A stretch of DNA of 62,992 bases, counting the filler, from Reclinomonas americana ATCC 50394 (lineage: Eukaryota): assembly GCA_048213135.1 (NCBI GenBank). It is 9 parts of 6 records of this genome, joined end to end, with 100 filler letters (N's around TTAATTAATTAA, not from the genome) between each part and the next. Parts side by side here need not be neighbours in the genome. Positions count along the whole stretch, not along the records: positions 9,812 to 19,863 come from PS015459.1; 8 more parts are not named here. One strand, 5' to 3'. Within the stretch, counting starts at the first letter, position 1. Every line of letters begins with the position of its first letter. Made by a program: the position numbers and the translations under genes. The notes under the pieces were generated by a model, which had not been told where the DNA came from, searched no databases, and was given only the letters and a program-made list of their open reading frames with translations. Of this stretch, positions 5,448 through 61,102 are shown in pieces.

Positions 5448-8400
5448 CTTCACACAGACACTTTTCCTTCTCTCAGTCAACCCACGTGTGTTTTTCAATG
5501 CAGATTGTGGTGGATGCCGGCCAACGGGAACCTGTGCCTGGCCTTCGCATCACGCCCGTGCATGGTGCGAGTGCTGTTTGACTGTTGTTGGTCTCTCTCC
5601 ACGCTCACTTGATTCTCTTCAGCGCGAGGAGCACGGAGCTTGAGTGCGTTCTGCTTGGTGGTCTCCAATGGCGAGGTGTGCTCTCTCACACGTTTAGATT
5701 GCAAGTGAACAGTCAATCACCTTGATTATGTGCAGATGGTCATCTACCACGAAGCATCCCTCCCGAGACCCGACGGTGGTCTCTTTGTGCGCTCGCAGCT
5801 GCAGTTGCCGGGCGTGGCGTCGCACTGGAAAGTGACGGCTGCTGATGTTCGCCTGCTTCCTTGTTGAGTGTGGCCTCCTATTCACGCACGTTGCTCGACA
5901 CCATCGCTGCGTGACTCACGCCCCGATGCTATACAGCGGGAGACGTGGCTATCGTGATCCATCACAGTGGAATGCGCAGTCCGGCCGAGGTCTCCATGTT
6001 TGTCGTTCGTCTGGAGTTCACCGATGATTGTTGCGTGCGCATCCTCGCACGATCCACATATTTTTGATTCTGTAGCTTAACCCCCCGCTCCCCTTCCCAC
6101 AGCCATGGACGCACGAGTTCGTCAGTCGGAGCCATTCATCAGTTGCGATTTCGAATGCTCTCACCGTTTTCATTCCGGTGCTTATGTGAGCACGGTGCAG
6201 CCTCGGATGATCCCTCGGCGTCGCTGGTGTCGCTGGCGATTGCCGACCACAACGGCAGCTTCAATGTCTTGTGTACCACCCACACAGACACGGAGTTGCT
6301 GGTCAGCAGCTGGGGCGTGCGTGATACCGGCGAGCACTTGGACGTGGACAAGGACCGATCGGTGGAGGTGAAGCACCCGACCAAGCCGCGATCAGCGATC
6401 AAGCACGATGTTGTGTATCCGGGAGACAGGTGACTGCACTCTTCTTTCTTTTTTGCTGCTGACTGTAGTCACGCAGTCTGAATACGGACAAATGCTGGTG
6501 TCACCCGATGGAAACATGGTGGCCTACTTGGCACACGATCAGAGCACCATCCACGTCTCCAACATGTTCGTCACTCACCGACTCTTATATTGCTGCTTCT
6601 GGGAAGGACTCACATGACTGCATTCGCAGTCACAACTTGCATCGCCTGGGCAGTGTGCCACTGCGTCCGCACCCGACAGCCGAGGACGCTGCCGCTGCGG
6701 CCGATGGAGAACGTGAGACGCGCTTTTTTTGCTGTGGTCGCCTGCATTTCTCGTCACTTCCTGCTCACATTCCACGCAGCACCGCGCAAGCGATCACGTA
6801 TGGGCGAAGGCAGTGCCAGTGCCGACTCGGATGCAACAATGACCGACATGACGGAGGAACACGGCGAATGGCGTCGACGGGTCATGGTCCGCTTCTGCTT
6901 CTCGTATCACAGCACCTGTGTGGCGTACCTCGATGAGTGGCATCACTTGCATTTCGTGCCGCTGTCGAGTATTCTGCTGCCAACGAAAGGCAGAAATCGA
7001 GGTGCATTGCTGGCCAACCAAGTGTGCATGTGTGTTCTCGTGGACTAACCGCGTGCCTCCCAGATCTACCACCAAGTGAATGTGCACAAGTTGCGCAATA
7101 TGTGGCGGCGCGCCTCGAAATGTGCATGTGGCAGCACTCGGATCCATTCGATGTCGCGGCGCTGCTCGCCATTTTTTCGGAAGGCTCTGAGGCCATGGAT
7201 AGTGCGTGGCGCGGTGTATGTGATCATGTCTCGTTTTTGCCACTGGATGGCTGATGAAGCGCCGCAGATATTGTGGCAACTGCGCACACGCTGCTGACGC
7301 GAAACATGGCGGCACAGTCGCGAAACAAGGAGAGCATGCGGTTACCGTTTGCGTGGATGCAACAATACCTGTGTCGGTTCGCGATCTGTTTTCGTTGTGC
7401 CCTTGTGTTTATTGTCTTGGCTCATCATTGTCGTGCGTAGCATGTCGGACAAGATGTGGCCGCAGTTGTTGGCCGTGCAGCTCCGCATCATGGAGGAGCA
7501 GTCGTTCCAGTCGCTGTCTCGTCTGCTGGGTGTCCAGTTTGATCACAGTGCGTGTGGAGGGGAATAATGTGTCGTTACTGCAAGATACTCACATGCGCTC
7601 ATGTTCTCCTCGTACAGCGCAAGCCGCCGATGCGCAGCGTGAATCGTACCTCCGTGCATGCCACGCGGCCAGTGCCAGTTGTGTTCTCTTACTTGCGATT
7701 GTCGGTTGAGCAGATACTCAGTAGTCTTTGCGCAGGCGATTTGCGGCGTACAATGCCCTTCCTGAACGTCTTGCACGAGATTCTGTATCAGCGAATGATG
7801 GACACTTGGATGTTGTTCCGCCCCAGTTGCGTTGATGGAGATATTTGGCGAGACTCTCATCTCACTCACCACTTCCTGGGCTCTTGAGCAGTGGACGTGA
7901 CGTACGATACCACGGCCACGGTTTGTCGACCTCGCCAGTAGCCATTGTCTGCTCTCCTCGTCCTCATTGTGCACGTGCAGGCGAACGACACGGTCAACGA
8001 AGACTGGCGGCTTCAACGTCTGATGCTTCTGTTGCTCTTTGCCGACGCGGCAGTGGCAGAGCTGCGTAATCGAGGGCTCGAGAGCATGTTTGAGCTGGCC
8101 AACCGCATTCTCAAGAGCATTATCAATCGCCCCGAGTTGTCGAACAACATGAAGAATGCGCTCATGGACATGCGGTGCGGTCTTGTTGCTGCGCGACGGC
8201 GTGCCCTGTCTGTGATCTGACCTCTTTCTCTCTCTCCTTTTCTTTTTACTCCGTGTGTGTGTGTGTCCTTTTCTTTCTCCCTCTCTCTCTCTCTCNNNNN
8301 NNNNNNNNNNNNNNNNNNNNNNNNNNNNNNNNNNNNNNNNNNNNNNNNNNNNNNNNNNNNNNNNNNNNNNNNNNNNNNNNNNNNNNNNNNNNNNNNNNNN

Positions 8401-9711: not shown

Positions 9712-9811
9712 NNNNNNNNNNNNNNNNNNNNNNNNNNNNNNNNNNNNNNNNNNNNTTAATTAATTAANNNNNNNNNNNNNNNNNNNNNNNNNNNNNNNNN
9801 NNNNNNNNNNN
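9712..9811. other. Artificial contig-joining spacer N44-TTAATTAATTAA-N44; recurs with the 12-mer at 19908, 30604, 34844, 44477, 51338, 55947 and 60982
   Basis: Identical 100-nt structure each time; the 12-mer gives stop codons in all six frames. Confidence 0.97.
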
Positions 9812-10035
9812 GCAGTTGGGAACATGGGACGGTGGTGAGTCGACTCACGAGGTGGCAAGCTGTCGAGTGCAAAGTGTGGTGCGCACACCAATAACGAAAT
9901 TGATTGGTGAAAACGCACTTGGTACTCAGTGGTGACACACAGACAATCGCTTCTGTCAACGCTCGTGTGCCCGTGTGTTTGGGCGCTGTGCTCACAGACT
10001 CTTGACGAAAACAATCACGATTGATATTTCTTGGT

Positions 10036-10737
10036 TTACAGCGGATGTTCTTCATCGATTTCGTCGTCCCCGGGCGTCAGCGACTGTGCGCGTGCGATTC
10101 GGATTTGGAATTCGACTTTGAGTAGATTGGATCGCGCGGCTGCCAGCTCGGGGTCAATAGCCAAGGCACGCTCAAGCGACTGCCTGGCCATGTGAAGATC
10201 TCCTTGCCCGATGTAGACGAGCGCCACGTTGTTGTGTGCCTACGACGAGGAGTATTGAGACCAAGTCGTGGTGTCGAATCAGCATGGTACACGCAAACGA
10301 AACTACAGCATTGTCGGGCTCCTTCTCCAGACACCGTCTGAAGGCCTCCATGGCGTCCTCGTAGAGGCCTGCGGGCAAGTGTCGATGAGACGGCAGACAC
10401 ATGCGTGGGAAAGAGAGATGAGAGAGACAATATGCACACCTTGGTGTCGCAATAGGTTGCCAAGGTTGTTCTGAATGGAGGGTCGTGCATCAAGCTCGAG
10501 AGCCTTGTTGTAGACCACACCAGCCTCTTGAAGCTCTCCATTGAGGTGCATGGCCAGGCCTACGAACATCGGGGGAAGAGTGAGAGAATAAATCAGCGCA
10601 GTAAAACGCCGATTGTACACCACGTACCGAGATCGCTCCACACAATCGGCGACAGCAGATCACGCAGTACGGATTGTTTGAAGAATTCCGCGGCCATGTC
10701 GTACGCGCCTTCCGTGAGGCACAGCATGCCCAGCTAA
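10036..10737 (-). CDS. TPR-repeat protein, C-terminal part (5' end in gap)
   Basis: Spliced repeats LGMLCLTEGAYDMAAEFFKQ, GLAMHLNGELQEAGVVYNKALELD, NNLGNLLRHQGLYEDAMEAFRRCLEKEPDNA, HNNVALVYIGQGDLHMARQSLERALAIDPELAAARSNL; TAA at 10036. Confidence 0.85.
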
Positions 10738-11673
10738 ACATAACAACTGCGTGAGAAAGCATGACGCACAACTNNNNNNNNNNNNNNNNNNNNNNNNNNN
10801 NNNNNNNNNNNNNNNNNNNNNNNNNNNNNNNNNNNNNNNNNNNNNNNNNNNNNNNNNNNNNNNNNNNNNNNNNNNNNNNNNNNNNNNNNNNNNNNNNNNN
10901 NNNNNNNNNNNNNNNNNNNNNNNNNNNNNNNNNNNNNNNNNNNNNNNNNNNNNNNNNNNNNNNNNNNNNNNNNNNNNNNNNNNNNNNNNNNNNNNNNNNN
11001 NNNNNNNNNNNNNNNNNNNNNNNNNNNNNNNNNNNNNNNNNNNNNNNNNNNNNNNNNNNNNNNNNNNNNNNNNNNNNNNNNNNNNNNNNNNNNNNNNNNN
11101 NNNNNNNNNNNNNNNNNNNNNNNNNNNNNNNNNNNNNNNNNNNNNNNNNNNNNNNNNNNNNNNNNNNNNNNNNNNNNNNNNNNNNNNNNNNNNNNNNNNN
11201 NNNNNNNNNNNNNNNNNNNNNNNNNNNNNNNNNNNNNNNNNNNNNNNNNNNNNNNNNNNNNNNNNNNNNNNNNNNNNNNNNNNNNNNNNNNNNNNNNNNN
11301 NNNNNNNNNNNNNNNNNNNNNNNNNNNNNNNNNNNNNNNNNNNNNNNNNNNNNNNNNNNNNNNNNNNNNNNNNNNNNNNNNNNNNNNNNNNNNNNNNNNN
11401 NNNNNNNNNNNNNNNNNNNNNNNNNNNNNNNNNNNNNNNNNNNNNNNNNNNNNNNNNNNNNNNNNNNNNNNNNNNNNNNNNNNNNNNNNNNNNNNNNNNN
11501 NNNNNNNNNNNNNNNNNNNNNNNNNNNNNNNNNNNNNNNNNNNNNNNNNNNNNNNNNNNNNNNNNNNNNNNNNNNNNNNNNNNNNNNNNNNNNNNNNNNN
11601 NNNNNNNNNNNNNNNNNNNNNNNNNNNNNNNNNNNNNNNNNNNNNNNNNNNNNNNNNNNNNNNNNNNNNNNNN

Positions 11674-12396
11674 TCTCTTTGTCGCCGTGCTGGCCGTCTG
11701 TGTGGCCGTCGCACTGGCCGATTCGTGCGCCTACACTTGCAAGAACTACGACGCCGTGCGCCTCGGCACCGCCTCGTGCCCACCCAACACCAGCGACCTC
11801 ACCAACGGCAACTGCTGTGGCTTCTACTCGGGCGCCAACTGCGACGTCTCTCCCTTCCCCGCCGTGTGGCCGCCAGTCGCCGTGTGCACCAATGAGCCGG
11901 GTGCCTGCAACAGCAACGGCTTCTGCAAGCCCGACCTCACCTGCGCCTGCTACTACAACTGCGTCAACTACGTGCAGGTGGCCCTCGGCACTGCTGTGTG
12001 CCCGCCCGGCACCAACGATGCTGGCAACGGTTTGTCACTTGTCTGCTCTCTCTCTCTCATCCCCGCAATGACTCAACTCTCCTCCATCTCTCTCCCTCCC
12101 TCGCAGGCAACTGCTGCGGCAGCTGGTCGGGCAGCCACTGCGAGAACTCGCCGTTCCCGGCTGTGTGGCCGCCGGTGCCGGTGTGCACTGATGCCCCCGG
12201 CGCATGCAACAACCACGGTTACTGCACGGCCGATCTGACTTGCCAGTGCCACTACGCCTGCAACAACTACCCCGCCGTGGCCGCTGGCACCGCCTCGTGC
12301 CCCGGCACCAGCTCTCACCTCGGCAACGGCAACTGCTGCGGCAGCTACAGTGGTGCCACCTGCAGCCAGTCTCCGTTTGACAGCTGCACGCAGTAG
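11674..12396 (+). CDS. Secreted Cys-rich protein with ~2.6 tandem EGF-like modules (start in gap)
   Basis: Signal-peptide tail LFVAVLAVCVAVALA; repeated unit CxYxCxNYxxVxxGTAxCPxxTxxxxNGNCCGxxSGxxCxxSPFPAVWPPVxVCT; one intron at ~12030-12106; TAG at 12394-12396. Confidence 0.8.
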
Positions 12397-12469
12397 ACGA
12401 GAGTAGATAGAGAGAGAGATTCTTGCCAAATGAAATCTGTAATTACATGTTTGCACTTGCCAACAGTCA

Positions 12470-15400
12470 TCACAGGCTCACAGCGGCCGCAGCTAACGGC
12501 GGCGCCAGCACAAGTGTGTGATAGCCGTACTCGTCTCCCGAGTCGAAGCGAGTGACCGAGGTGCGACAGAGAGGACATTTGCCACGTCGCTCGACCACTT
12601 GCTGTGCACAGTTGCGGCACACAACCTCGTGTCCGCACGGACGCAGTCGAGTTTCGCGCACATCGTAACAAAGCACGCAGGCGCGACGGCACGACAACGC
12701 AGTGAGATCGCGCATCTCGGCCACCAGCTCGTCGGCACTCGGGCGGCGATTGGGTCGATGGTCGACACAGCTGCACCCCAAACCATGAGGGAACTACGCA
12801 GTGCAAACAAGAACGGGGCTGATGCTTACTACTCACCGCATGGCCAATCGCACAAGACGGCGACAGACGGATGTGGGCCATTCCCGGCCCACCGAGGTGT
12901 CGGCCAGCAGCACAGCGGCCTCATCGAGTCTCGCCACGTCGTCGTCCTCCACCATTCCCTCAATCCACTTGTGCACTCTTGCAATTGGTTGACCGGAGAA
13001 CAGTTGCAGCAGAATGAGTCCGAGGCAGTATACGTCGGCAGTCGGGCGCAGAATGCCACGCAGTGCCTGCGGATCGGCATAGTCGTGGTCGCCGGCAAAC
13101 TGCACCGATAGGTGTGTCTGCTTGTCACCACACGCGCACTCATGAGTATACTATCGGTGGGAAGGCGGGGGAAGGGAGAGAGCACACTCACCCCACCGGT
13201 GCGGAACCAGTGCGCGATTCCCAGGTCCGAGATGCACGCCTGGCCACGCTCGTCAAAGAGGATGTTGGCGGGCTTCAAGTCGCGATGAATGACTGCGAAT
13301 CATGGTGAATATTTGAGGCCACGACGTAAATGAGCGCACAGAGACTCACCATTCTGGGCGACGGCGAGAACAGAAAGCAGTGACAGTGAGAGGGAAGAGG
13401 AGTGAGAAACGACGTCATCAAGTAGCACGACAGCGACACAAACCATCCTGTACAACAAGAGATGATGAGAAACGACCACAAGCACCCGATTTCCCACTGC
13501 AGCTGCTGCCTCACCTATGCAATGCCGCCACGATCTCCGAACAACGAAGCAAACACGTCATGCGCTCCTCGATGGCCATGACGGGCAATCCGAGTGCTTG
13601 ATACTCCAACAGCCGGTGCTCGAGGTTGTGCTCGCTTGTGAATGATCAAGAGAAAGACAGTGCATCAGCAACAACGTGCCAGAAGAATTGCATGCAACCA
13701 GCAGGAATACGCAATATCCACCAACCTCATGGCCTCCAGCACAATGCACTTTTCACCACGGTCTGATTCGGCAAACCCAATAATGCGAACCACGCCAGGC
13801 ACCATCACATTCTTCAGTTTCTCCAACTGCACCCAGCAAATAACGGTAAACAAAATGCGATGATCACCATGGCCAGGTCTCCCCACACGAATATTCTCAC
13901 CTCATTGGAGAACGACTCGATGCACCACGGCGCATCGCTGTCGAACACTTTGACGGCCACCTGCTGCTCCTTCCACGCGCCAGAAAACACGCTTCCCTGT
14001 CCACCAGTGCCAAGACGACGAGCAAAGCCATTTGTCATGGCGCCGATTTGCCTCCACGAAAAGACCGTCAATGGAACTGCAAAGCTGCACATGAGCACAA
14101 GCAATCTTTGCCGCACACTCACTCGCACTCACCACGATGGTTGAGCTCGTGCTGCGCGGCGGCCAAATCAGCGGCCAGTCGTTGTGCGCGGTCGTATTCT
14201 TGCTGCCGCTGCTCGTCCATGCGCTCCAAAGAGACGCGAAGAGCCGCACATTCCTCACGCAAGCGCTGCACCGCGGCTTCTCGCTGTGGCTGCACATGCA
14301 ACCGCTGCATCTCCACCTCGCGCCGCAGTCGCCCAATGGTGGCATCTTGTTGTTGTACGCGCTGCTGCAACACATCCGCTTGGGCATTTCGCTCGCGGAC
14401 AGCCGTCTGCTGCTGCTGCCGCTGCTCCTCTACCTCCCGCCTCAGCTGCGCAATGGTGGCTTCATGTTGCTGCACTTGCTGTTGCAATGCATCCACTTGA
14501 GCTGTTCGCTCGCGGACAGCCGCCTGCTGCACGTCCGCCTCATCCAGCACCTGTGCAATCGTGGCATCTTGCTGCTGTGCTGTCGCTCGCTGCTCCGCCA
14601 GGTCGCGTTGCAGTTGTGCAATAGTTGCCTCCAGCTCCTGCTCGCGGCCCGAGTTCACTTGCGGTGGCTGTTGCACTCAATCCCGATGAGCGTCAACATA
14701 GCATCAATAATGTTGTCATTCCTCACCGGCGGGTAAGCCATTCGTGGAGCAGGGGAGAACACTGGGGGTGCTTGGTACGGTGGAGGTGCGTCGTACACTG
14801 GTGGTGGGTACATTTGAGGATAGCCGTACGCTGCAGGAGCGGCGAATGCTGCAGCTGGGGCTTGAGGTAGCACTGGTGGAGGGACGTATGCTGCTGCTGC
14901 CGGAGGAGAGCCGAACGCTGGCGGTGCGTCGTACACTGGTGGCGAGCGGTGCACTGGCCGCGGTGTATGTGGTGGTGCGATGTACGCAGAGGCTGAAGAC
15001 CTCGAAGGCGCTGCGCATCACGCAAAACCGTCAACATGTACAAGCGCATAAACACGAAGCAAGATGCAAGGATACGCACGGAATATGCGTGCAGCGTCAC
15101 GACGTCGCCGCGCAACGGCCAGCTCTGCTCGGGTTTCGGAAAGACTGTCGGCAGTGCTCTGGGTGTGCGCGTGGTTCGGCCCCAGCACGCGACGACGAAG
15201 CGGCAAGATTTCCTCGAATATCTGCACGGCCTCCTCCAGATTGGCCAAGCCGCCTACATTGACCAGCGTGTATGCCATATTGTGCATGCTCGTCAGTGTT
15301 GCAGGGTGATCCGCACCCAACACTTCACGTCTCCGGCGCACAACATCACGCGAGACTCGAACTGACTCCTCGTACTCCTTGTTATCGTCAAGCGCGAGAG

Positions 15401-15839
15401 CCAGACAGTGTAATGTATCCAACACACACTGGTCCCCTTCATCCACGTAGCGTTCCTGCTTCGCCGCCGTGTCGCGCAGCAATGCAATGGCCTCATCGTA
15501 CCACTTGAGCGCCAGCAGAGTGAGACCCTTGTTGAACGCCGTCTGCAACGTTCTCTTGTGAGTCGCGCCCAACAAACGCTTCCTCCTCTCCAGCACATCG
15601 TCGAATAGTGACAATGCGCTCTGCGTGTCTCCCGACTCGCGGAGCGTAACCGCATACTTGAAGGCACACACAAGAGTCGCCTCGTCGTCAGGGCCGCGCA
15701 AGTCCTCAAAATCTCTTAGGCAGGAACTGAGAATGGGTGCGGCAGTGGCATGATCACCGCTGTCGCAGAGCCGTCTGGCTTCATCATACTGCTGCCTTAT
15801 CTCATCGTAACTCGGCGTCGGGCCTTCGCGTCGTTGCAT
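12470..15839 (-). CDS. TPR - Pro-rich - coiled coil - Pelle/IRAK/RLK-like Ser/Thr kinase - C3HC4 RING fusion protein
   Basis: All junctions phase correctly with GT-AG. Order: TPRs (LGADHPATLTSMHNMA, VLGPNHAHT), PPVYDAPP repeats, Gln-rich coiled coil, kinase motifs (LGTGGQGSVF, VAVK, HRDLKPAN, DLG, YADP, DVYCLG), then RING CVLC..PCGH..CRNC..CPLC; TGA at 12470. Confidence 0.85.
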
Positions 15840-16049
15840 GACGACAAACACAAGCCGGACGATAACCACTAAAGGACTTTTTTGACATGTATATTGGCAG
15901 ACAGTTCGAAGTTCCGTGCCACTCAAGAGGATGCACCGCACATCACCATCGCCAAGCGAAGTACAAACATGGAGAAGTGCTTATGATCCCACATGCGCGA
16001 CAGATCGACAAGCTCGGCGATCGAGCTCGAGGTCGTGATCCATGCATGT

Positions 16050-16206
16050 ATGCATCCGAACCGCGCAAGTCCTCAAAGTCGCGCATGCAGCGAGCGAGGA
16101 GGGGTGCGGCGGTGGCATAGTCACCATTGTAGTAGTGCCGCTTGGCCTCTTCGTACTGCAGCTTGACCTCATCGAAGGTAGGCGCACGACCTCCGCTCCG
16201 ACGCAT
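16050..16206 (-). pseudogene. Truncated duplicate of the first ~50 codons of the TPR-kinase-RING gene
   Basis: MRRSGGRAPTFDEVKLQYEEAKRHYYNGDYATAAPLLARCMRDFEDLRGSD aligns with MQRREGPTPSYDEIRQQYDEARRLCDSGDHATAAPILSSCLRDFEDLRGPD; similarity then stops. Confidence 0.6.
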
Positions 16207-16445
16207 TTATGACAAGATTTTTTCCAGCACGCCGGACACGAAGGATCCTGTCAATGATGCCGGCGATGGGTGCGGACGGTCTGCTCGTGGCAACTGAGTA
16301 CTCGTGATAGTGCTGCCTTTGCAGAGTAGACGGTGGGGATCGTCTGCACTCATCGTGCAGGTGGGTGTGCGATATTGCCAATGTGCACATGTGTTGGTGC
16401 ATGCACGGTAAGTCATCGAAAGAAGTTTTACACCTCACTATCCTC

Positions 16446-19848
<3,403 letters not shown>

Positions 19849-19963
19849 CGTACGTACGAACGTNNNNNNNNNNNNNNNNNNNNNNNNNNNNNNNNNNNNN
19901 NNNNNNNTTAATTAATTAANNNNNNNNNNNNNNNNNNNNNNNNNNNNNNNNNNNNNNNNNNNN

Positions 19964-30559: not shown

Positions 30560-31892
30560 NNNNNNNNNNNNNNNNNNNNNNNNNNNNNNNNNNNNNNNNN
30601 NNNTTAATTAATTAANNNNNNNNNNNNNNNNNNNNNNNNNNNNNNNNNNNNNNNNNNNNAGAGAGAGAGAAAGAGAGACAGTGTGTGTGTGTCAGTGTCA
30701 AACCTGCACCGCCAGCGCCATAACCGCCGCTTGGCCCTGTGTGTGTGAGAGAGAGACACAGTGAGAGAGAGAGTGCATGAGGTAAGGAAAAATAGCTACT
30801 TTTGTCACTTTTGAACACACACACAAGAACATGCGAGAGACAGGGAAAATGAAAGACAGTGTGCAGGTGAGCAGGAGATTCGGGGTGCGAAGAGCGTGCG
30901 TGGGGGCGACGGGAGGCCATTGTCACCTGACATGGCGCGCTCTTCACGTGTTTCGGAAGTTGGTGTGTAAGAAGATGTCCCGCCGGTGTGTGCTTCTTTG
31001 TATACACACGCGCGCGCACGAGCAAGATGCACGCAGACAGGGGGGACGGGCTTGTGGTTACACAGGCACGCAAAAAAAACACGCGGCTTGCGGAAATAGC
31101 AGCGCGACGTTCATGGACGTCGAGACAAGGCGCCGACAAGTCCACTTGTGTTGATCAAGAGAGCGAGAGAGACACTGTACTTGTGCCACATCGAGCCTTG
31201 TCATCGGCAATGCAAACAGGAGTGGAAGACGATGCGGAGTCAGAAGAGCCACTTCAAGCGCTCTTCATCGCCAACACAAATAGAAGTGGAAGAGGAGCCA
31301 CAAGAGTCACAACAGCAAATCGATGCAGAGAAAATGCAGTGGAAAGCAACGCTGCAGAGACAAGGAACACAAGATAACTGATTCGAGGAGAACATGTACC
31401 ACATCAATCAACCACTCCTCGTCGCAAGCGCAATAATTAATGGGTGGAAGAGGAGTCAGAAGAGTTGCAATGGTGGAATACCGAAATCGATATCCATTGT
31501 GAAGAGTACAAGCACAGAGACACTGCATGCTCCAGAAAGAGAGAGACCCCATACTCGTACCACACCAGCCACTCCTCATTGCAAGCGCAATGATCAAGCA
31601 GGGAAGAGGGGTCACAAGAGTCATATACCGAAATCCAACGCGACGACAGTGCACGAAGAAGGCAAAAGCTGCACAGCAACGGCGACAGAGGAGCTTTCTC
31701 CAGTAGTGCCCCACCAGCTGCTCTACGCAACCATGCGCGAAAACAGTGCCCACGCCACTGCTGCAGCGAAACTCGGAAAAACACCAACCATCGACAAGTC
31801 TCCGCAGCTGCTTCTCCTCCTTGTTGCACGCACCTCGAAGCGAGTGCTGCACACCTGTGCACGTAACAAAAACACCGCTCTTCCACTACGCT

Positions 31893-34758: not shown

Positions 34759-34898
34759 GTACGCGCCCTTTCCTCCTGCCGCCTGCGCCTGTGTGCACCN
34801 NNNNNNNNNNNNNNNNNNNNNNNNNNNNNNNNNNNNNNNNNNNTTAATTAATTAANNNNNNNNNNNNNNNNNNNNNNNNNNNNNNNNNNNNNNNNNNN

Positions 34899-35583
34899 NA
34901 ACTGATCGGGGTTCGGGTTGCGGCAAATGGTGCCGACATACGTCAACACCACCAGCTCAGCAATGGAGGCCACCGCTTGAATGATGGTGAGGATGAGGAC
35001 AGTGAGGGCGACGCGCGAACGACATGAGCCGAAGCGAATCCACCCGCTCGGCAACGTCGCCATCACCATCATCGTCCAGAACACACACAGTGCCGCCAAT
35101 AGAATGACCATGGAGCCCGCGTTGATGAACAGCGCAGACCAGTAGTCAGGCGGGTTCCAGTACATGGCATACGCAGCTGTGCAAGGGAGTGTGTAAGAGT
35201 GTGTGCAAGTGTGTGTGCAAGGGTGTGCGTGTGTGTGCGTGTGTGTGTGTGTGTGTGTTGTGCACAAGTGAGTCAATGTGTTTTATCAGACAAGTGTATG
35301 CAACTGGCGGCGCTTGCGGAGCACGTTAGTCGCACTGTCTGCGTGATCCAGTAGAATGTGATGCGCGATCTTGAGTCACTGGAGAAGTGAGTGAGAGTGA
35401 GAGTGAGAGTGAGAGTGTGAGCGGGTGAGGAAAAATATACGCGCGCGCATATGTGTGTCAACGCAACTATCGTCGATTGGGGAAGCGAAAGATGAGGTGA
35501 AAGACAAGGGAGAGGAAGACAATAACAGCGGCGGCGGGGTACACGCCGTTGACGATGATTACATAGTACAATGGTGGGTCCAT
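34899..35583 (-). CDS. Multi-pass membrane protein (at least 4 TM, 3'-partial; 7TM/GPCR-like layout possible)
   Basis: MDPPLYYVIIVNGVYPAAAVIVFLSLVFHLIFRFPNRRY|DSRSRITFYWITQTVRLTCSASAA|TAYAMYW..LFINAGSMVILLAALCVFWTMMV..VALTVLILTIIQAVASIAELVVLTYV. Confidence 0.65.
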
Positions 35584-36607: not shown

Positions 36608-39202
36608 ATGACACCGATGCCGGCTACGCTCTGGCAGGTGTGTTGTTCTTTCTTTTTCCCTCAGTGCACACATGCACAACACCACAGAGAAGAGGGTATA
36701 AAGAGGCTCTGATGCGTTTGTGCGCTCTCAGCTCCACTCGAAGTCCACAACTTTGACGACTGCCTGCCGTTGTTGGGTTTGCCAGCATCGGTACTGGAGG
36801 CTGTTCTCAAGGGTGTGAAAGAACACTACACTGCGGCTGTGTGGAACGCCACGGGAGTAGGTTATTACACTGCGTGCTTTTGTTAGCAGTCCCCCTTCTT
36901 TTCCTTGCCGCTTACACAAACTTCTTCGAAGCTGGCAAGCAGATGTTTCTGCAGACGCTGGCCTCTCTGCTCGCCACTCGCGAGGTGGAGATNNNNNNNN
37001 NNNNNNNNNNNNNNNNNNNNNNNNNNNNNNNNNNNNNNNNNNNNNNNNNNNNNNNNNNNNNNNNNNNNNNNNNNNNNNNNNNNNNNNNNNNNNNNNNNNN
37101 NNNNNNNNNNNNNNNNNNNNNNNNNNNNNNNNNNNNNNNNNNNNNNNNNNNNNNNNNNNNNNNNNNNNNNNNNNNNNNNNNNNNNNNNNNNNNNNNNNNN
37201 NNNNNNNNNNNNNNNNNNNNNNNNNNNNNNNNNNNNNNNNNNNNNNNNNNNNNNNNNNNNNNNNNNNNNNTACAGGTGTGGCAAGAGAGAAAGGAACGAA
37301 AAGGGGGGAGAGAGAGACTCATTTACGTAACGATGTGTGCACAGCGCTGGATGCGTTTGGCGAGTCCGAGTACGCGCCCGGCGTGAAGCGGCGGCGCAAG
37401 CTGCAGGTGGAGGAGTTGTCGGCGGAGGTGCGTGAGCGACTGGAGGCGCTGCGCAATGAGTACTCGACGGCTGTGGCCTCCATCGTGGATGTGGCGGCGC
37501 CGAGCAGTCAACCGCAGCGCGGTGGTGGTTTCGAATCCAAAATCGAGCAAGCGCCGCCACTCGACATTTCACCATTCAATGAGTTGTTTGATCGCGACCG
37601 CCAGTTCGTGCAGCGTGTGACGCAGCGCGAGCGCTCCATGCACGATCGTACCACCGTGTTGCGTGCCGAGCAGGCGCTGCAGACGGTGCAGGCCGGCACC
37701 ACGGCCACTTCGGGGCGTGCAGGCACCGGCTCTGCTGTCTCCGCCTCACAACAGTCATCACAAGGCTCTGCAAGTGGCGAGGCCGACAACCAGGCGAAGC
37801 GCGGTTACTTTTCTGACGTGCTAGAACTATTCCGGCTGGTGCAGCGAACAGCGGTGCGTTTCCTTTCCTCGGGATGAGTTCATTTGCAAAGATCTCACTT
37901 GCATTTGTACATACAGGCCAGTGAACCGGTGGCCACACACGCCACGGCCGCCGCCGGTGGTCCCGTCGGTGGACGACCCAGCGGTGGCCGACCTGGCTCG
38001 CCGACGTCGGCGCGCAAGTCCACGCAGCCAAAGAAGCCGGCCGTGGAACCGTCGCGCTTGGAGCGACAGGTGCCGGAGAACCAAGTATGGGGTCACGCCG
38101 GCATTGGCTCCGGTGCGTGTCTTGTCGTCGTAGCACTTGTGACCGTACACACAGTCACTCACCACGTCCACCAACCAGACGTGACGGACATTGTGGCAAA
38201 CCCCTCCGGAACGCTGCTCCCCGTGCGCGTTGCGTCATTCCTCCCCCCTTGTCTCGCACATGCCCTTTCTCACTCGTGGCACACAGTCGGCCTCCTCCTC
38301 CACAACCTCTTCGTCGTCCGCCGCTCCGCGGTCATCGTCCGCTCCCCGGCCAGCCCCACCATCAAAACCAACGACCGCCGCTGCTCCGCCGCCTCCCCCT
38401 CCTGCATCTTCGTCCTCCTCCTCCGCTGGCGCTGCAACAGCAGCAGCCGGGGGTTCAGGGGCGGCAGCACCACCCGAGGGCAAGAAGCAGCGACCATTTA
38501 TCATTCTGGTGCCGTCGGCCGCCACCTCGCTCATCACGCTGTACAATGCCAAGGAATTCCTACAAGACGGAAAGTTGCGTGACACACACACGAAACGCCG
38601 CACTGCGTGTTCCTCCCCTCCCCCCATCCCACTCACGCACGTTGGTGGTGTTGCGTGCTCCAGCTTTGTGTTCTCGGAGGAGAAGCGCAAGGCCAACCCG
38701 AAAAAGGAGAGCTTTGTGCGCATCACACGCACACTACCGAACGGGCAGACAATGACGTACGACGTGCTGGACAACCCGGCCAAGCTGCCCGCCGGCTACT
38801 TTGAGCGCACCGTGGCCGTCTTTGTCACCGGCCAGCCGTGGCAGTTTGCCGACTGGCCCATCTCGCAGCCGGCAGAGATCTTCTCCAAGTGTTGCGTGAC
38901 CACTCGTGCTTTGCTATGTGCGTGCGGGTTGCTGCTGCTCAAAAAGACGCACGCAGTCCGCGGCTTCCACCTGCACTTCACCGACGAGAAGGCGCACCCG
39001 AACGTGGCGAACTGGAACGTCAAGACACTCACGGTCTTTTCCTGCAACGCTCGCGTACTTGCACACGACACACACACTTGCTCACTACTGTGTACAGATC
39101 TCCAAGGAAAACCACATGCGATACATGGACCGATCCAAATACCTCGAGTTCTGGCGCCTCGTCGACGACCACATGACGAAGAAGAACATGTGGAAGCTGT
39201 GA
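36608..39202 (+). CDS. CDC73: PAF1 complex subunit CDC73/parafibromin (N-terminus uncertain)
   Basis: DRQFVQRVTQRERSMHDRTTVL; RPFIILVPSAATSLITLYNAKEFLQDGNFV; YFERTVAVFVTGQPWQFADWP..PAEIFSKFRGFHLHF..VANWNVKTLTISK..RYMDR..FWRLVD. Confidence 0.92.
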
Positions 39203-39295
39203 TCGAGCAGAAAAAAAGGAAAAAGGGGGGGAAAAGTGTGTGACAGCTCGTGACACGATAAAAATTCAATCAATTTCTCATCAGCTTGTCAGAGA

Positions 39296-39584
39296 ATGAG
39301 CAAGGCGCACGACTTCCTCGACAAGATCTCCAAGCAGATGTGCGTGTGCCTCTCTGTGTGTATATGAGAGAGAACACGCGCATTCTCACTCTCTGTGTGT
39401 GTGTGTGTGTGTGAGCAGGCAATCGTTTCTGTCTGCGGGCAAGTGGAGTGGGCGAGCGGCGGTGACCGAGGCCAACGTGCCCTGCCCCGACTACACTCAG
39501 AAGCTCTATGACAACCTGCTGAGCATGCTGGAGACACAGGGACACGCAGTCGTCAACAACCCACTCACACAGGTGAGAGAGAGC

Positions 39585-44432: not shown

Positions 44433-44583
44433 NNNNNNNNNNNNNNNNNNNNNNNNNNNNNNNNNNNNNNNNNNNNTTAATTAATTAANNNNNNNNNNNN
44501 NNNNNNNNNNNNNNNNNNNNNNNNNNNNNNNNATGTGAGCGTGCTTGTATGTGTGTGTGTGCGCTAAAGCGTGTGCTGTGTAG

Positions 44584-48065: not shown

Positions 48066-51000
48066 ATGATGCGCGCGCGTGCAATCTCCGCGTTGGCGCT
48101 GCTGCTGCTGGTCGTGCTGTGCTCCGCTCACGGTGAGTCTCTCTCTCTCACTCACTCTCATGTGATTCGAACATACCGACGACGTGTGCGTCATCAACGG
48201 TCGATGTGTGCGTGCGCGAGAGTGGCGAGGTGGAGAGAAAGAGAGAGAAACACACACACCGAAAAAGAGATGCACTTTTTTCATGCATTCCCGCGCACAA
48301 CGGTCACATTTCGCGCGCGCGCGCAACTCACACATTCTTTGCGCAGCCTCTGGCAGCCTGCTCGACAATGACGATGCGCAACTCTTCGGCGAGTCGTCTG
48401 CCAGTATCACCCACACTGGCTGCTTGGCAAACACGCTTGACGTGACGTGCCCGGCCAACACCTACATTTCCATCAGCCAGATCACTCTGCGCCTGGCGGT
48501 GACAACCGACGGCTGCGGTGCTGTCCTCAGCTCGCCGTCGTACTGTGCCACCGTGATCGACGTGACTTCCAAGCTGGCGCCGTTCTGCAACAAGCAGGCC
48601 GGCTGCTGGGCCAAGGTCAGCGACTACGACTCGTCGGACTGCGCCCAGTACCGCGTGCTGCAGGCCGACTACCAGTGCCTGACTGGCTCGCCGAACCCGC
48701 CGCTCTTCTGCACCAATGCTGGCTCTTGCAGCAATCAGGGTGCCTGCGTGGTTGACTCGTACGGCAAAGCGTCGTGGTGCGTTGATCGGCAAACCAAACC
48801 GACACCAGCCATCCGAAAAGCTCTCGCTGACACACATTGTTGGTTTTCTTCTTCTTCCGTCGTCGCACAGCAACTGCGCCAATGGGTACTCGGGAGACCG
48901 GTGCCAGAACCCGCCGACCGGAACGTGCGCCAACTACCAGTGCGCGGCCAATGGCCTGTGCAAGGTTGTCAATGGATCGCCGACCTGGTACGACTTTGTG
49001 TGTAATATATTCTCTTGTCGCGCAATGTTTTATTTACTGTGGCTCTCCGACAACACAGCGTGTGCTTCTACGGCTACACTGGTGCCAAGTGCGACGTGCC
49101 TCCGCCAAACAGTGCGTTTGCGTGCAGACTTGTCGTTGAGAGCGTTTAGAGTGTGGCTGACTGCTGACTTCTCATCTGCAGGCGCCGACACGCTGCTTCT
49201 GAAGGACGTGATTGCGCCGTTGAACGACTTGACCCCGCTCATTACCAGTTGTGTTTCACCGCTGCGGCTTGTGCTTGTTCTACTTATCTGATTCCGTTTT
49301 CTTGTGCCAACCAGGCCTGCAGCCGACGTGCCAGACCTACTCATGTGGCCAGTACGGCACATGCAGCATCGTCAACAACACTCCCAAGTGGTACGTGTGT
49401 TGTGACCGTCATTGTTGTGGGTGACAAGAGCCACGTCTCCTCACAAAAGATTTGTAAACGCAGCACATGCACTGGCGGCTACACTGGCGCCAAGTGCGAC
49501 GTCCCGCCGAGCAACTCATGCCCCGCCAACTACTGCGGTGCTTGGGGCACATGCAGCATTGTCAACTACCAGCCCGTGTGGTGAGTCTCTGTTGCTGTCA
49601 CTGCGTTGCGAACTTTGCTCCGTCAAGAGCTAACTTTCTTCTTTTCTCTCGACATGCAGCACTTGCAACAGCGGCTACACTGGTGCCAAGTGCGACGTCC
49701 CGCCGAGCAGCCCGTGCTCTGCCAATTACTGCGGTGCTTGGGGCACATGCAGCGTTGTCAACTACCAGCCCGTGTGGTGAGTCTCTGTTGCTGTCACTGC
49801 GCTGCGAACTTTGCTCCGTCAAGAACTAACTTTCTTCTTTTCTCTCGACATGCAGCACTTGCAACAGCGGCTACACTGGCGCCAAGTGTGACGTGCCGCC
49901 GAACCCGTGCGCCTCATACTCGTGCGGCCAGTACGGCACATGCAGTGTCGTCAACTACCAGCCCGTGTGGTGAGTCTCTGTTGCTGTCACTGCATCGTGT
50001 TGTTCTTGTTCCCCAGTCCTGACTTTATCTTGACCTCTCTCTCTCTCTCNNNNNNNNNNNNNNNNNNNNNNNNNNNNNNNNNNNNNNNNNNNNNNNNNNN
50101 NNNNNNNNNNNNNNNNNNNNNNNNNNNNNNNNNNNNNNNNNNNNNNNNNNNNNNNNNNNNNNNNNNNNNNNNNNNNNNNNNNNNNNNNNNNNNNNNNNNN
50201 NNNNNNNNNNNNNNNNNNNNNNNNNNNNNNNNNNNATCACTCCCAACCATTACCCACACTGGCTGCCCGACTAGCACACTCGATGTGTCGTGCCCTGCCA
50301 ACTCGTACATTGCTGTCAAGCGCATCTACCTGCGCCTCAGCGTGCTGGTCGACGGATGCTTCAACCCGCAGCCGCCGCCAACTGCGCCGTCGTACTGCGC
50401 TACCGAGATCGACGTGACTGCCAAGCTGGCGCCGTTCTGCAACAAGCAGGCTGGCTGCTGGGCCAAGGTCAGCGACTTTGACACTTCGGATTGCGCCAAG
50501 TACCGCGTGCTGCAGGCCGACTACACTTGCCCGTCGGGCACCCCCAACCCGCCGCCGTTCTGCACCAACTCTGGTGCGTGCAACAACCAGGGCGACTGTG
50601 TGGCCGATGCGTACGGCACGATTTCTTGGTGAGTGCGTCCCCGATACATGCTCGCGAAGTGAGCAGTGGTTTGACAAAGTGTATGTATGTGTGCAGCGCT
50701 TGCAAGAATGGCTGGACTGGCGATCGTTGCCAAAACGCTCCGACTGATCCGTGCATCAACTATTCATGCGGCCTGTACGGCAAGTGCAGCGCTGTGAACA
50801 ACCAGGCGACTTGGTGAGCTTGCATGTGTCATCCATGCCTCCGACTTGCTTGTGACTCACACTATCGCTTTCAATCCTCGCAGCGTGTGCAACAGCGGCT
50901 ACACTGGCACCAAGTGCGACGTGCCGCCAGACCCATGCGCCTCGTACTCGTGCGGCCCGTACGGCACTTGCAGTGTGGTTCACTACCAGCCTGTGTGGTG

Positions 51001-53119
51001 AGTCTCTTTCTTCACGACTTGCATCGCTTGTCAGTTCTGACACTTCTCTCCACTCCCCTCTCGACACACAGCACTTGCAACAGCGGCTACACTGGCACCA
51101 AGTGCGACGTGCCGCCAGACCCATGCGCCTCGTACTCGTGCGGCCCGTACGGCACATGCAGTGTGGTTCACTACCAGCCTGTGTGGTTTGTTCTCGTCTC
51201 TTGTTCATCTGTATTACGGATCCAGCACTGTCTAACACGAAACTGCAGCACCTGCACTGGCGGCTACTCGGGCGTCAAGTGCGACATCCCGCCNNNNNNN
51301 NNNNNNNNNNNNNNNNNNNNNNNNNNNNNNNNNNNNNTTAATTAATTAANNNNNNNNNNNNNNNNNNNNNNNNNNNNNNNNNNNNNNNNNNNNGTCGCTC
51401 CCAACCATCACCCACACTGGCTGCCCGAGTAACACACTCGATGTGTCGTGCCCTGCCAACTCGTACATTGCTGTCAAGCGCATCTACCTGCGCCTCAGCG
51501 TGCTGGCCGACGGATGCTTCAACCCGCAGCCGCCGCCAACTGCGCCGTCGTACTGCGCCACCGAGATCGACGTGACTGCCAAGCTGGCGCCGTTCTGCAA
51601 CAAGCAGGCTGGCTGCTGGGCCAAGGTCAGCGACTTTGACACTTCGGATTGCGCCAAGTACCGCGTGCTGCAGGCCGACTACACTTGCCCGTCGGGCACC
51701 CCCAACCCGCCGCCGTTCTGCACCAACTCTGGTGCGTGCAACAACCAGGGCGACTGTGTGGCCGATGCGTACGGCACGATTTCCTGGTGAGTGCGCCGCC
51801 GATACATGCTCGCGAAGTGAGCAGCGGTCTGACAAAGTATGTGTGTGTGTGTGTGTGTGCAGCGCTTGCAAGAATGGCTGGACTGGCGATCGTTGCAACA
51901 TTGCTCCGCCGCCCACGGATCCGTGCGCCAACTACTCGTGTGGCTCGTACGGCAACTGCGTGGCGTCGAACGGCCAGCCGTCTTGGTGAGGCGCATCCCT
52001 TGGCGTGTTTAACCTGTGACTTTGACATTGACATTGCCCTTCCATCTACGCAGCGTGTGCAACAGCGGCTACAGCGGCGCCAAGTGCGACGTGCCGCCGA
52101 ACCCATGTGCCTCGTACTTGTGCGGCCAGTACGGCACTTGCAGTGTGGTTAACTATCTGCCCACTTGGTTTGTACCTCTTCTGTTCTTGATAGTTTTGTG
52201 TGTCACCACCATTCTCAACCTCTCTTTCCGCAGCACCTGCACTGGCGGCTACAGTGGCCCCAAGTGCGACATCCCGCCGTCGCTCCCGACCATCACCCAC
52301 ACTGGCTGCCCGGGAAGCACTCTGGACGTGTCGTGCCCCGCCGCCTCGTACATCTCGGTGAAGCGCATCTACCTGCGCCTCGCCACAACGGCTGACGGCT
52401 GCGGCTACATCTACACGGCGCCGTCCTACTGCGCAGCGCAGGTCGACGTGACCGCCAAGCTGCTGCCGTTCTGCAACAAGCAGGCCGGCTGCTGGGCCAA
52501 GGTCAGCGACTTTGACACTTCGGACTGCGCCCAGTACCGCGTGCTGCAGGCCGACTACGCCTGCCCGTCTGGCACCCCCAACTCGCCGCCGTTCTGCACC
52601 AACTCTGGTGGCTGCAACAGCCAAGGCGACTGCGTGGCCGATGTGTACGGCACGATTTCCTGGTGAGTGCACAGAGAGAGTTCTCGCTCCAGTGTAAGTC
52701 GTGGTGACTCACACTGTGTGTGCGACGCAGCGCATGCAAGAACGGCTACTCGGGAGACCGGTGCCAGAATGCTCCGAGCGCCAACTCGCCAATCTGCAAG
52801 ACCGATGCCGACTGCAACTCGCACGGCAAGTGCATTCTTGGCAACTCGTACGTGCCGGTTTGGTCAGTGCACGATCTTGCTGCCTCTATAAATCACAAGA
52901 CTGGCAACTGACAACACCATTTTTTTATGCAGCGCCTGCAACTACGGCTTCACTGGTCCGACGTGCGCCACGTCGACCTACGGCTCGAGCGATCCCAATG
53001 CCTCGTACCCAGGTGAGTCGCGACTGCGTCACTGTCATTATCGGCTCACCAACCATCGCTCACGCGCCGGAACAACGAATGCAGATCTCTCGTCCGACAA
53101 TCTCTTCGGCCCGAAGTAA
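48066..53119 (+). CDS. Secreted protein with four SUEL-like lectin modules interleaved with EGF repeats
   Basis: Signal AISALALLLLVVLCSAH. Module ITHTGC..TLDVxCPA..I.LRL..DGC..SYCA..DVTxKLxPFCNKQAGCWAKVSD..DC..YRVLQADYxC occurs at ~48406, 50237, 51394 and 52280. EGF units are CxxGYxGxKCDVPP; TAA at 53117-53119. Confidence 0.85.
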
Positions 53120-55902: not shown

Positions 55903-56002
55903 NNNNNNNNNNNNNNNNNNNNNNNNNNNNNNNNNNNNNNNNNNNNTTAATTAATTAANNNNNNNNNNNNNNNNNNNNNNNNNNNNNNNNNNNNNNNNNN
56001 NN

Positions 56003-60937: not shown

Positions 60938-61102
60938 NNNNNNNNNNNNNNNNNNNNNNNNNNNNNNNNNNNNNNNNNNNNTTAATTAATTAANNNNNNN
61001 NNNNNNNNNNNNNNNNNNNNNNNNNNNNNNNNNNNNNGGGGCATGCAAAGACGTGAGGAGAGGAGGCAGTGCAGGGGAGTGCAGCGACGAAACAACACGC
61101 AC

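Follow-up and report, generated by a model that had tools for sequence, protein, structure and literature searches.

The window analysed here (63 kb of Reclinomonas americana ATCC 50394, assembly GCA_048213135.1, including 10219 N) holds, in the piece at positions 9812-19863, a minus-strand gene whose predicted product is composed of tetratricopeptide repeats (TPR), a coiled coil, an IRAK/Pelle-like kinase domain and a C-terminal RING. Two large exons of the kinase domain are separated by a 222-nt interval, and the splice signals inside this interval suggest that the mature mRNA probably carries two separate exons of only 4 nt each, GATG (13447-13444) and AATG (13353-13350), set between three short introns (I3, I4 and I5).

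Exons were joined by an exon-chaining script combining codon log-odds, donor and acceptor position weight matrices (PWMs) and a length term, and the kinase domain was aligned to a profile built from 63 kinase domains of 50 remote homologues. The elements of the gene are as follows, with splice-site percentiles given as the rank among the training introns of the window.

15021-15980, minus: TPR open frame (Pfam TPR_12 101.1 bits, TPR_10 94.6 bits)
14123-14676, minus: coiled-coil, Q/A-rich exon 5′ of the kinase domain; open frame, with weak matches to coiled-coil families
13901-14051, minus: kinase exon with the glycine loop (GTGGQGSV) and the VAVK lysine; aligns from profile position 49 on
13726-13826, minus: kinase exon, helix C to hinge; frame confirmed by the continuous profile alignment
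13515-13634, minus: kinase exon with helices D and E, ending ..A-A-L-H plus AG (..GCA TTG CAT AG); read in the sequence
13448-13514, minus: intron I3, 67 nt, GTGAGG..CTCAT..ACAG; donor 6.4 bits (50th percentile), acceptor 11.3 bits (91st)
13444-13447, minus: proposed microexon 1, GATG, completing an R codon and encoding M; acceptor 11.3 bits, donor 9.6 bits
13354-13443, minus: intron I4, 90 nt, GTTTGT..CTCAC..pyrimidine tract..CCAG; donor 9.6 bits (92nd percentile), acceptor 9.0 bits (66th)
13350-13353, minus: proposed microexon 2, AATG, encoding N and starting a V codon; acceptor 9.0 bits, donor 10.8 bits
13293-13349, minus: intron I5, 57 nt, GTGAGT..GCAG; consensus donor 10.8 bits (97th percentile), acceptor 5.0 bits (23rd)
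13192-13292, minus: kinase exon with the catalytic loop (V)IHRDLKPAN and DLG, starting TC ATT CAT CGC GAC; Pfam Pkinase
12837-13120, minus: kinase C-lobe exon, Y-A-D-P motif to subdomain X; IRAK4 is the best solved-structure match
12470-12770, minus: last coding exon, with the kinase end, a C3HC4 RING (Pfam zf-C3HC4_3) and the stop TGA at 12472-12470

The TPR frame probably forms the N-terminal part of the kinase gene, a join made solely by the exon-chaining script, which also proposed the donor GTGAGT at 14122 after the coiled-coil exon and placed the 5′ boundary of the glycine-loop exon at 14051; the donor of the latter exon, GTGAGA at 13900, was read in the sequence. The kinase domain is interrupted by seven short introns. 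All seven coding exons between 14051 and 12473 are open, and the G-loop (GxGxxG), VAVK, HRD and DLG motifs are intact, as are the RING cysteines. The 33-residue IHRD exon alone was recognised by Pfam Pkinase (PF00069; 32.5 bits against a cut-off of 31.7, profile positions 120-149 of 263), and the RING of the last exon by zf-C3HC4_3 (PF13920; 40 bits against a cut-off of 27). The script also proposed an extra 98-nt intron at 12384-12481 on the minus strand (GTGAGC..GTGCAG), which starts 9 nt ahead of the stop codon and would swap the last three residues for a short alternative C-terminus.

The C-lobe exon and the motifs point tentatively to the IRAK/Pelle/receptor-like kinase group. Among solved structures, the C-lobe exon matched IRAK4 best (E 8.2e-6 over 53 residues of this one exon), followed by the plant kinases PBL2, RIPK and BIK1, and the Y-x-D-P activation-segment motif and the HRDLKPAN loop match the same group. 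A HMMER search with this 95-residue exon against 1.84 billion representatives recovered 50 remote kinases at E <=0.001 (best 1.2e-15); the database proteins are only 34-44% identical to it, and that over parts, with most of the top ten in this range. The order of TPR, coiled coil, kinase and C-terminal RING was not seen in any match, the matches not having been screened for RING.

An earlier note had proposed the two 4-nt exons and their introns, and direct reading of the sequence places every element at the minus-strand positions listed above. Each candidate is bounded by an acceptor AG on its 5′ side and a donor GT on its 3′ side, each belonging to a complete intron, and the two units lie 94 bases apart. 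Reading the upstream exon (13634-13515) into the interval meets a TGA at once, and another TGA, immediately ahead of the acceptor, closes the frame of the downstream exon; since both flanking frames are closed, the extra bases (2 modulo 3) must originate inside the 222-nt interval. The distance to be filled between the two large exons is 8 bases. Joining all four pieces gives a stop-free ..L-H-R-M-N-V-I-H-R-D-L-K-P-A-N.., in which the R/M/N/V link connects helix E (..A-A-L-H) to the strand preceding HRD. The suggestion that the microexons build the catalytic loop is overstated: the 8 nt supply R, M, N and V immediately 5′ of it, and the HRDLKPAN loop itself lies in the downstream exon.

The intron model and the ranking of joins

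The script was started from 24 hand-picked introns and iterated, with the target interval excluded from training throughout, and the result was a set of 159 introns. A first intron-finding pass without splice-site models was too noisy and was dropped. Among the 159 introns the commonest donors were GTGCGT (15), GTGAGT (14) and GTTGCG (10), the acceptor was CAG in 115, and the median length was about 70 nt. A strict subset of 86 introns, each required to avoid a stop or frameshift and to have flanking exons of at least 45 nt, had lengths of 41-111 nt plus one of 293 nt. When a flat 40-300-nt length prior was used as a check on circularity, 68 of 85 introns still measured 45-110 nt, none fell at 112-170 nt and 13 fell at 171-293 nt. 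The lengths of I3, I4 and I5 (67, 90 and 57 nt) are typical for this genome. Of 85 introns, 69 have a branch-like YTNAY motif (mostly CTCAC, CTGAC or CTCAT) at a distance of 8-45 nt from their 3′ end; I3, I4 and I5 all carry such a motif, in the form CTCAY.

The donor repertoire of the window is unusual. GTGAGT is enriched (66 occurrences vs 23.8 expected) and GTAAGT is nearly absent (4 vs 17.3 expected), and GTTGCG(T) is a recurrent apparent donor beside GTGCGT and GTGAGT, with examples at 18826, 18147, 28652, 21209 and 43305 on the minus strand and at 6030, 38229, 41768, 45107 and 62487 on the plus strand.

All in-frame, stop-free joins across the interval were enumerated, with no more than two internal exons, whatever their size, and with GT-AG introns not shorter than 40 nt. 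Twelve paths satisfied these rules (32 with GC donors permitted): the two 4-nt exons (4+4); five paths combining AATG with a first exon of 10-37 nt; four paths with a lone short exon, of 5 nt, 14 nt or, in two versions, 8 nt; a 98-nt exon, equivalent to keeping I4; and a 63+5-nt pair. The 4+4 path ranks first of the 12 under both training sets, remains best when GC donors are permitted, and is the Viterbi path with the log-normal as well as the flat length prior, so that the two-microexon join proposed earlier is also the one preferred by an intron model whose training set comes from other parts of the window. The total scores of the main paths are:

GATG + AATG (4+4): 37.1 bits
19 nt + AATG: 29.7 bits
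10 nt + AATG: 27.6 bits
16 nt + AATG: 26.1 bits
single 8-nt exon GATGGTTT: 20.8 bits
single 14-nt exon: 20.5 bits
single 8-nt exon AATGGTGA: 18.2 bits
single 5-nt exon: 9.6 bits

AATG is included in the six best paths. The donors of the single-exon paths rank at the 6th to 32nd percentile, and each such path requires an intron of 147-170 nt; the 98-nt-exon model is estimated to lie about 15 bits under the best path. In all these totals the model charges a geometric prior per intron and nothing else.

Chance appears a poor explanation of such a score. When the 222-nt interval was shuffled 1000 times with its dinucleotide content preserved, no shuffle came up to 37.1 bits (mean 18.3, standard deviation 4.5, maximum 31.8), and 965 of the 1000 offered some in-frame path. 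The window holds 3112 AG-N(1-8)-GT sites, both strands counted. In a ranking of them by whichever of the acceptor and donor PWM scores is lower, GATG came first and AATG second, and these are the only two sites with acceptor and donor both at or above 9 bits. The 40 nt upstream of AATG are also the most pyrimidine-rich (0.80; next 0.65) among the AG-N(1-15)-GT[GA]AG sites listed. The next best AG-N(1-8)-GT sites, 37852-37853 and 39338-39339 on the plus strand (lower scores 8.4 and 8.8 bits), lie in or adjoining a CDC73 gene; the former looks like an artefact, with an open read-through.

The spliced 4+4 product forms one continuous kinase domain covering profile positions 49-330 at about 190 bits, and because this alignment is continuous, the frames on both sides of the interval are fixed. 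The earlier expectation that skipping either microexon shifts the frame agrees with the translation of each variant, in which a stop follows 6-13 codons later: after 6 more codons if GATG or AATG is skipped, and after 13 if both are. Retention of I3 brings an immediate stop and retention of I5 a stop after 18 codons. Retention of I4, overlooked in the earlier note, leaves the frame open, because its 90 nt are a multiple of three and lack an in-frame stop, and 30 residues are inserted; the insert encoded by 13354-13443 is hydrophobic and serine-rich. The frame and the kinase domain thus need the 8 nt, a need that a lone 8-nt exon would meet equally.

Competing explanations

Several observations weigh against two separate microexons. 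The intron model is self-trained on this window alone, and with the flat length prior the observed score of 30.7 was reached by none of 1000 shuffles, but their maximum of 30.5 leaves a thin margin. The script over-predicts tiny exons, proposing exons of 0, 2 and 3 nt elsewhere; a 2-nt exon that it placed in the CDC73 gene was judged an artefact because the read-through there is open. The acceptor of I5 is weak (5.0 bits, 23rd percentile). Well-studied genomes have few 4-nt exons, far fewer than the geometric prior implies, a prior cost that lies outside the model and is incurred twice here; by our estimate it would set the 4+4 path back by roughly 10 bits relative to a single 8-nt exon, after which 4+4 still leads once intron length is counted, with a margin that is not wide.

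At the protein level, the kinase profile does not separate the joins (AATGGTGA 191.4, 4+4 190.6, GATGGTTT 189.3 and 10+4 189.1 bits). Nor does the residue preceding the two hydrophobic positions of the loop: among 64 distinct catalytic-loop contexts of the homologues it is V eight times and N twice, so that an expectation that V never precedes two hydrophobic positions proved wrong. A word-index search of 5.8 billion clustered sequences with the C-lobe exon gave 246 candidates, none of them scored, and no close protein, and a metagenome contig scan with the same exon gave 599 pattern matches, none confirmed, and no relative. The exact 33-mer of the IHRDLKPANI-coding stretch was found in two metagenome contigs (L001 1501-1533 and L002 1501-1533), which encode intronless kinases with unrelated flanks and look bacterial; as only the conserved motif is held in common, they are uninformative on splicing. 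The two matches reflect codon-level convergence of GC-rich genomes on a conserved motif and advise caution with exact-word searches.

Of the alternatives to the two exons, the most probable is that the locus yields no such protein, being a decaying or untranscribed copy or carrying an assembly indel or mis-join, so that the apparent solution is fortuitous. The assembly is indeed very fragmentary, with 10219 N and contigs concatenated with spacers, and no identical or close protein turned up among the 5.8 billion clustered sequences. We nevertheless regard this as unlikely, since the coding exons from 14051 to 12473 are all open, the profile alignment runs end to end at 190 bits with the motifs intact, no single-base change, as judged from the sequence, would restore canonical spacing without extra exons, and the shuffle and site-ranking tests speak against a chance solution. 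A single 8-nt microexon, either GATGGTTT (13447-13440, donor GTGTCG) or AATGGTGA (13353-13346, donor GTCTCT), would make the other unit a chance occurrence inside a 147- or 161-nt intron. Both versions preserve the frame and the canonical spacing, their products score on par with 4+4 (189.3 and 191.4 bits), and one microexon is, in our judgement, likelier a priori than two. Against this stand totals of 20.8 and 18.2 bits versus 37.1, donors at the 32nd and 6th percentile with a consensus GTGAGT left unused 4 nt away, and introns of 147-161 nt, a length range holding none of the 85 introns; moreover, the unused unit would be one of the two best among 3112 sites by chance. We consider the single exon distinctly improbable.

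A little less probable again is a reading in which AATG is real and its partner is longer, the first exon running from 13447 to a weaker donor 10-37 nt on and adding 2 to 11 residues before N-V-I-H-R-D. Such paths take ranks 2-6 of the 12 (24.0-29.6 bits with the 159-intron set and 26.2-32.0 with the strict set), and the kinase profile tolerates up to three extra residues, the variant with two scoring 189.1 vs 190.6 bits. However, they lie 6 to 13 bits under 4+4, their donors (GTCGCT, GTCGTG, GTGCTA) stand at the 2nd to 14th percentile vs the 92nd for GTTTGT, and the variant with five extra residues is down to 186.8 bits. The least probable of these alternatives has no microexons at all: the 90-nt middle segment would be coding, within an ordinary 98-nt exon (13447-13350) that adds 30 residues between helix E and the loop. 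Two ordinary introns would then suffice, and the 90 nt are a multiple of three and free of in-frame stops; but 140 of 258 training-intron frames are open too, and because open frames are so common among introns, that of I4 is weak evidence for coding. As 30 codons I4 scores -6.7 bits, at or below 1.3% of 227 exon windows, and its GC content at third codon positions (GC3) is 0.53 vs 0.65 in the exons first used for codon-model training. The 98-nt-exon product falls to 175.6 bits with its kinase domain split in two, and I4 combines CTCAC motifs with a strong donor and with an acceptor tract richer in pyrimidines than that of any other site listed. Retention of I4 could still occur as a minor isoform.

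Other features of the window

The window contains eight identical spacers, each consisting of 44 N, TTAATTAATTAA and 44 N, which form an all-frame stop linker between separate contigs. They stand at:

9712-9811: 44 N + TTAATTAATTAA + 44 N
19864-19963: the same
30560-30659: the same
34800-34899: the same
44433-44532: the same
51294-51393: the same
55903-56002: the same
60938-61037: the same

Because the contigs are concatenated, genes on either side of a spacer need not be physically linked. A Pfam screen of 49 long open frames of the window named four neighbours and no more. A gene with a CDC73 C-terminal domain lies at 38185-39240 on the plus strand (Pfam 113.6 bits); its best database relatives are about 31% identical, which suggests a poorly sampled eukaryotic lineage, and the Atlas returned nothing beyond generic eukaryotic CDC73 clusters. 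A cysteine-rich gene with EGF-like repeats at 49300-52700 (plus strand) has repeated exons ending ..CCCGTGTG and introns of about 79 nt (GTGAGTCTCTGTTGCTGTCACTGC..CTAAC..ATGCAG); as these introns are nearly identical between copies, they point to a recent tandem duplication of exon plus intron. Microsatellites of the (GT)n/(CA)n type are very frequent across the whole window (GTGTGT 315 vs 23.8 expected) and produce long spurious open frames in six-frame listings.

Likely splicing mechanism, possible origin and relation to known microexons

If both microexons are used, they would presumably be constitutive, giving the 8 nt for R-M-N-V and holding the HRD loop and the RING in frame. Intron definition, in which splice sites would be paired across each intron, is plausible, as the earlier note had supposed, because the introns are short (68 of 85 at 45-110 nt). 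The footprint of U1 (exon positions -3 to -1 and intron positions +1 to +6) on a donor 4 nt past an acceptor would overlap or abut the upstream AG; given this clash, simultaneous recognition is unlikely and the introns are probably removed in succession. With each ligation a long exon would gain the microexon as its new 3′ end. A step that failed would lead to a premature stop, with the exception of I4 retention, which would stay in frame and add 30 residues. The idea that skipping serves as an off-switch is unsupported, its basis being frame arithmetic alone. Very doubtful, too, is a more elaborate scheme in which an obligatorily ordered, three-step splicing relay, perhaps derived, as an 11-mer common to I3 and I4 hints, from partial duplication of a branch-site/acceptor module, would gate a kinase-E3 ligase, such that the complete relay would yield active enzyme, a missed step a stop before the loop and RING, and I4 retention a third product.

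As to the proposal that the two cag-xATG-gt units may have arisen by duplication, the units and their flanks do not align in register. The one stretch common to I3 and I4 is an exact 11-mer (minus strand GTCGTTTCTCA) that extends to 18 aligned bases, with a score reached by 8 of 2000 shuffles. This repeat is off-register, since one copy ends up about 19-29 nt ahead of its acceptor and the other about 50-60 nt ahead, and it is made up of TTTCT and CTCAY elements that are recurrent in the introns of this genome. A duplication origin of the two units is possible, though the case for it is weak.

Recursive splicing and nested introns ("stwintrons") remove a stretch by successive reactions and leave no exon bases. 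The arrangement proposed here is similar in requiring several successive reactions, but differs in that 4 nt would be kept at each step. Recursive splicing is also treated in a work that describes animal neuronal microexons as 3-27 nt long and mostly in-frame and alternative (PMC13149111). The pair resembles these in consisting of very short exons that are hard for splice-site recognition; the animal microexons are mostly tissue-regulated and have long flanking introns, whereas the two proposed exons here are frame-essential, presumably constitutive, and flanked by short introns.

Closer parallels are found in plants, where the examples given include 1-nt exons in APC11 and VPS55, a 4-nt rice exon whose omission truncates the annotated protein, and an adjacent 5+12-nt rice pair, all validated by reverse transcription PCR (RT-PCR), and where the introns flanking microexons are described as going consecutively rather than simultaneously (PMC8831610). 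Like the plant microexons of that account, the two proposed exons here are internal coding exons of a few nucleotides, not multiples of three, situated in a conserved domain, essential to the frame and of a kind usually left unannotated (PMC8831610). Unlike them, both neighbours here measure 4 nt and lie 94 nt apart, in a non-plant-like genome with introns of about 70 nt and GTGAGT, GTGCGT and GTTGCG donors. The plant cases have RNA and cross-species support (PMC8831610), whereas the present pair is a prediction from genomic sequence. No report of two adjacent 4-nt exons was seen in literature searches that were not designed to exclude one, and the pair is probably a new case among the documented 1-5-nt and adjacent microexons.

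The biology of the TPR/kinase/RING protein is not in itself unusual enough to raise interest further. Should the two adjacent 4-nt exons be confirmed, few tandem exons on record would be as small. They also carry a warning for annotation, as this kinase would come out frameshifted or truncated from gene finders and spliced aligners, much as with the plant microexons (PMC8831610). The simple signal model used here did recover the pair, and others of its type may do the same for such exons. Confirmation would further mean that short-intron, intron-defined splicing can set splice sites 4 nt apart twice running within an essential catalytic domain.

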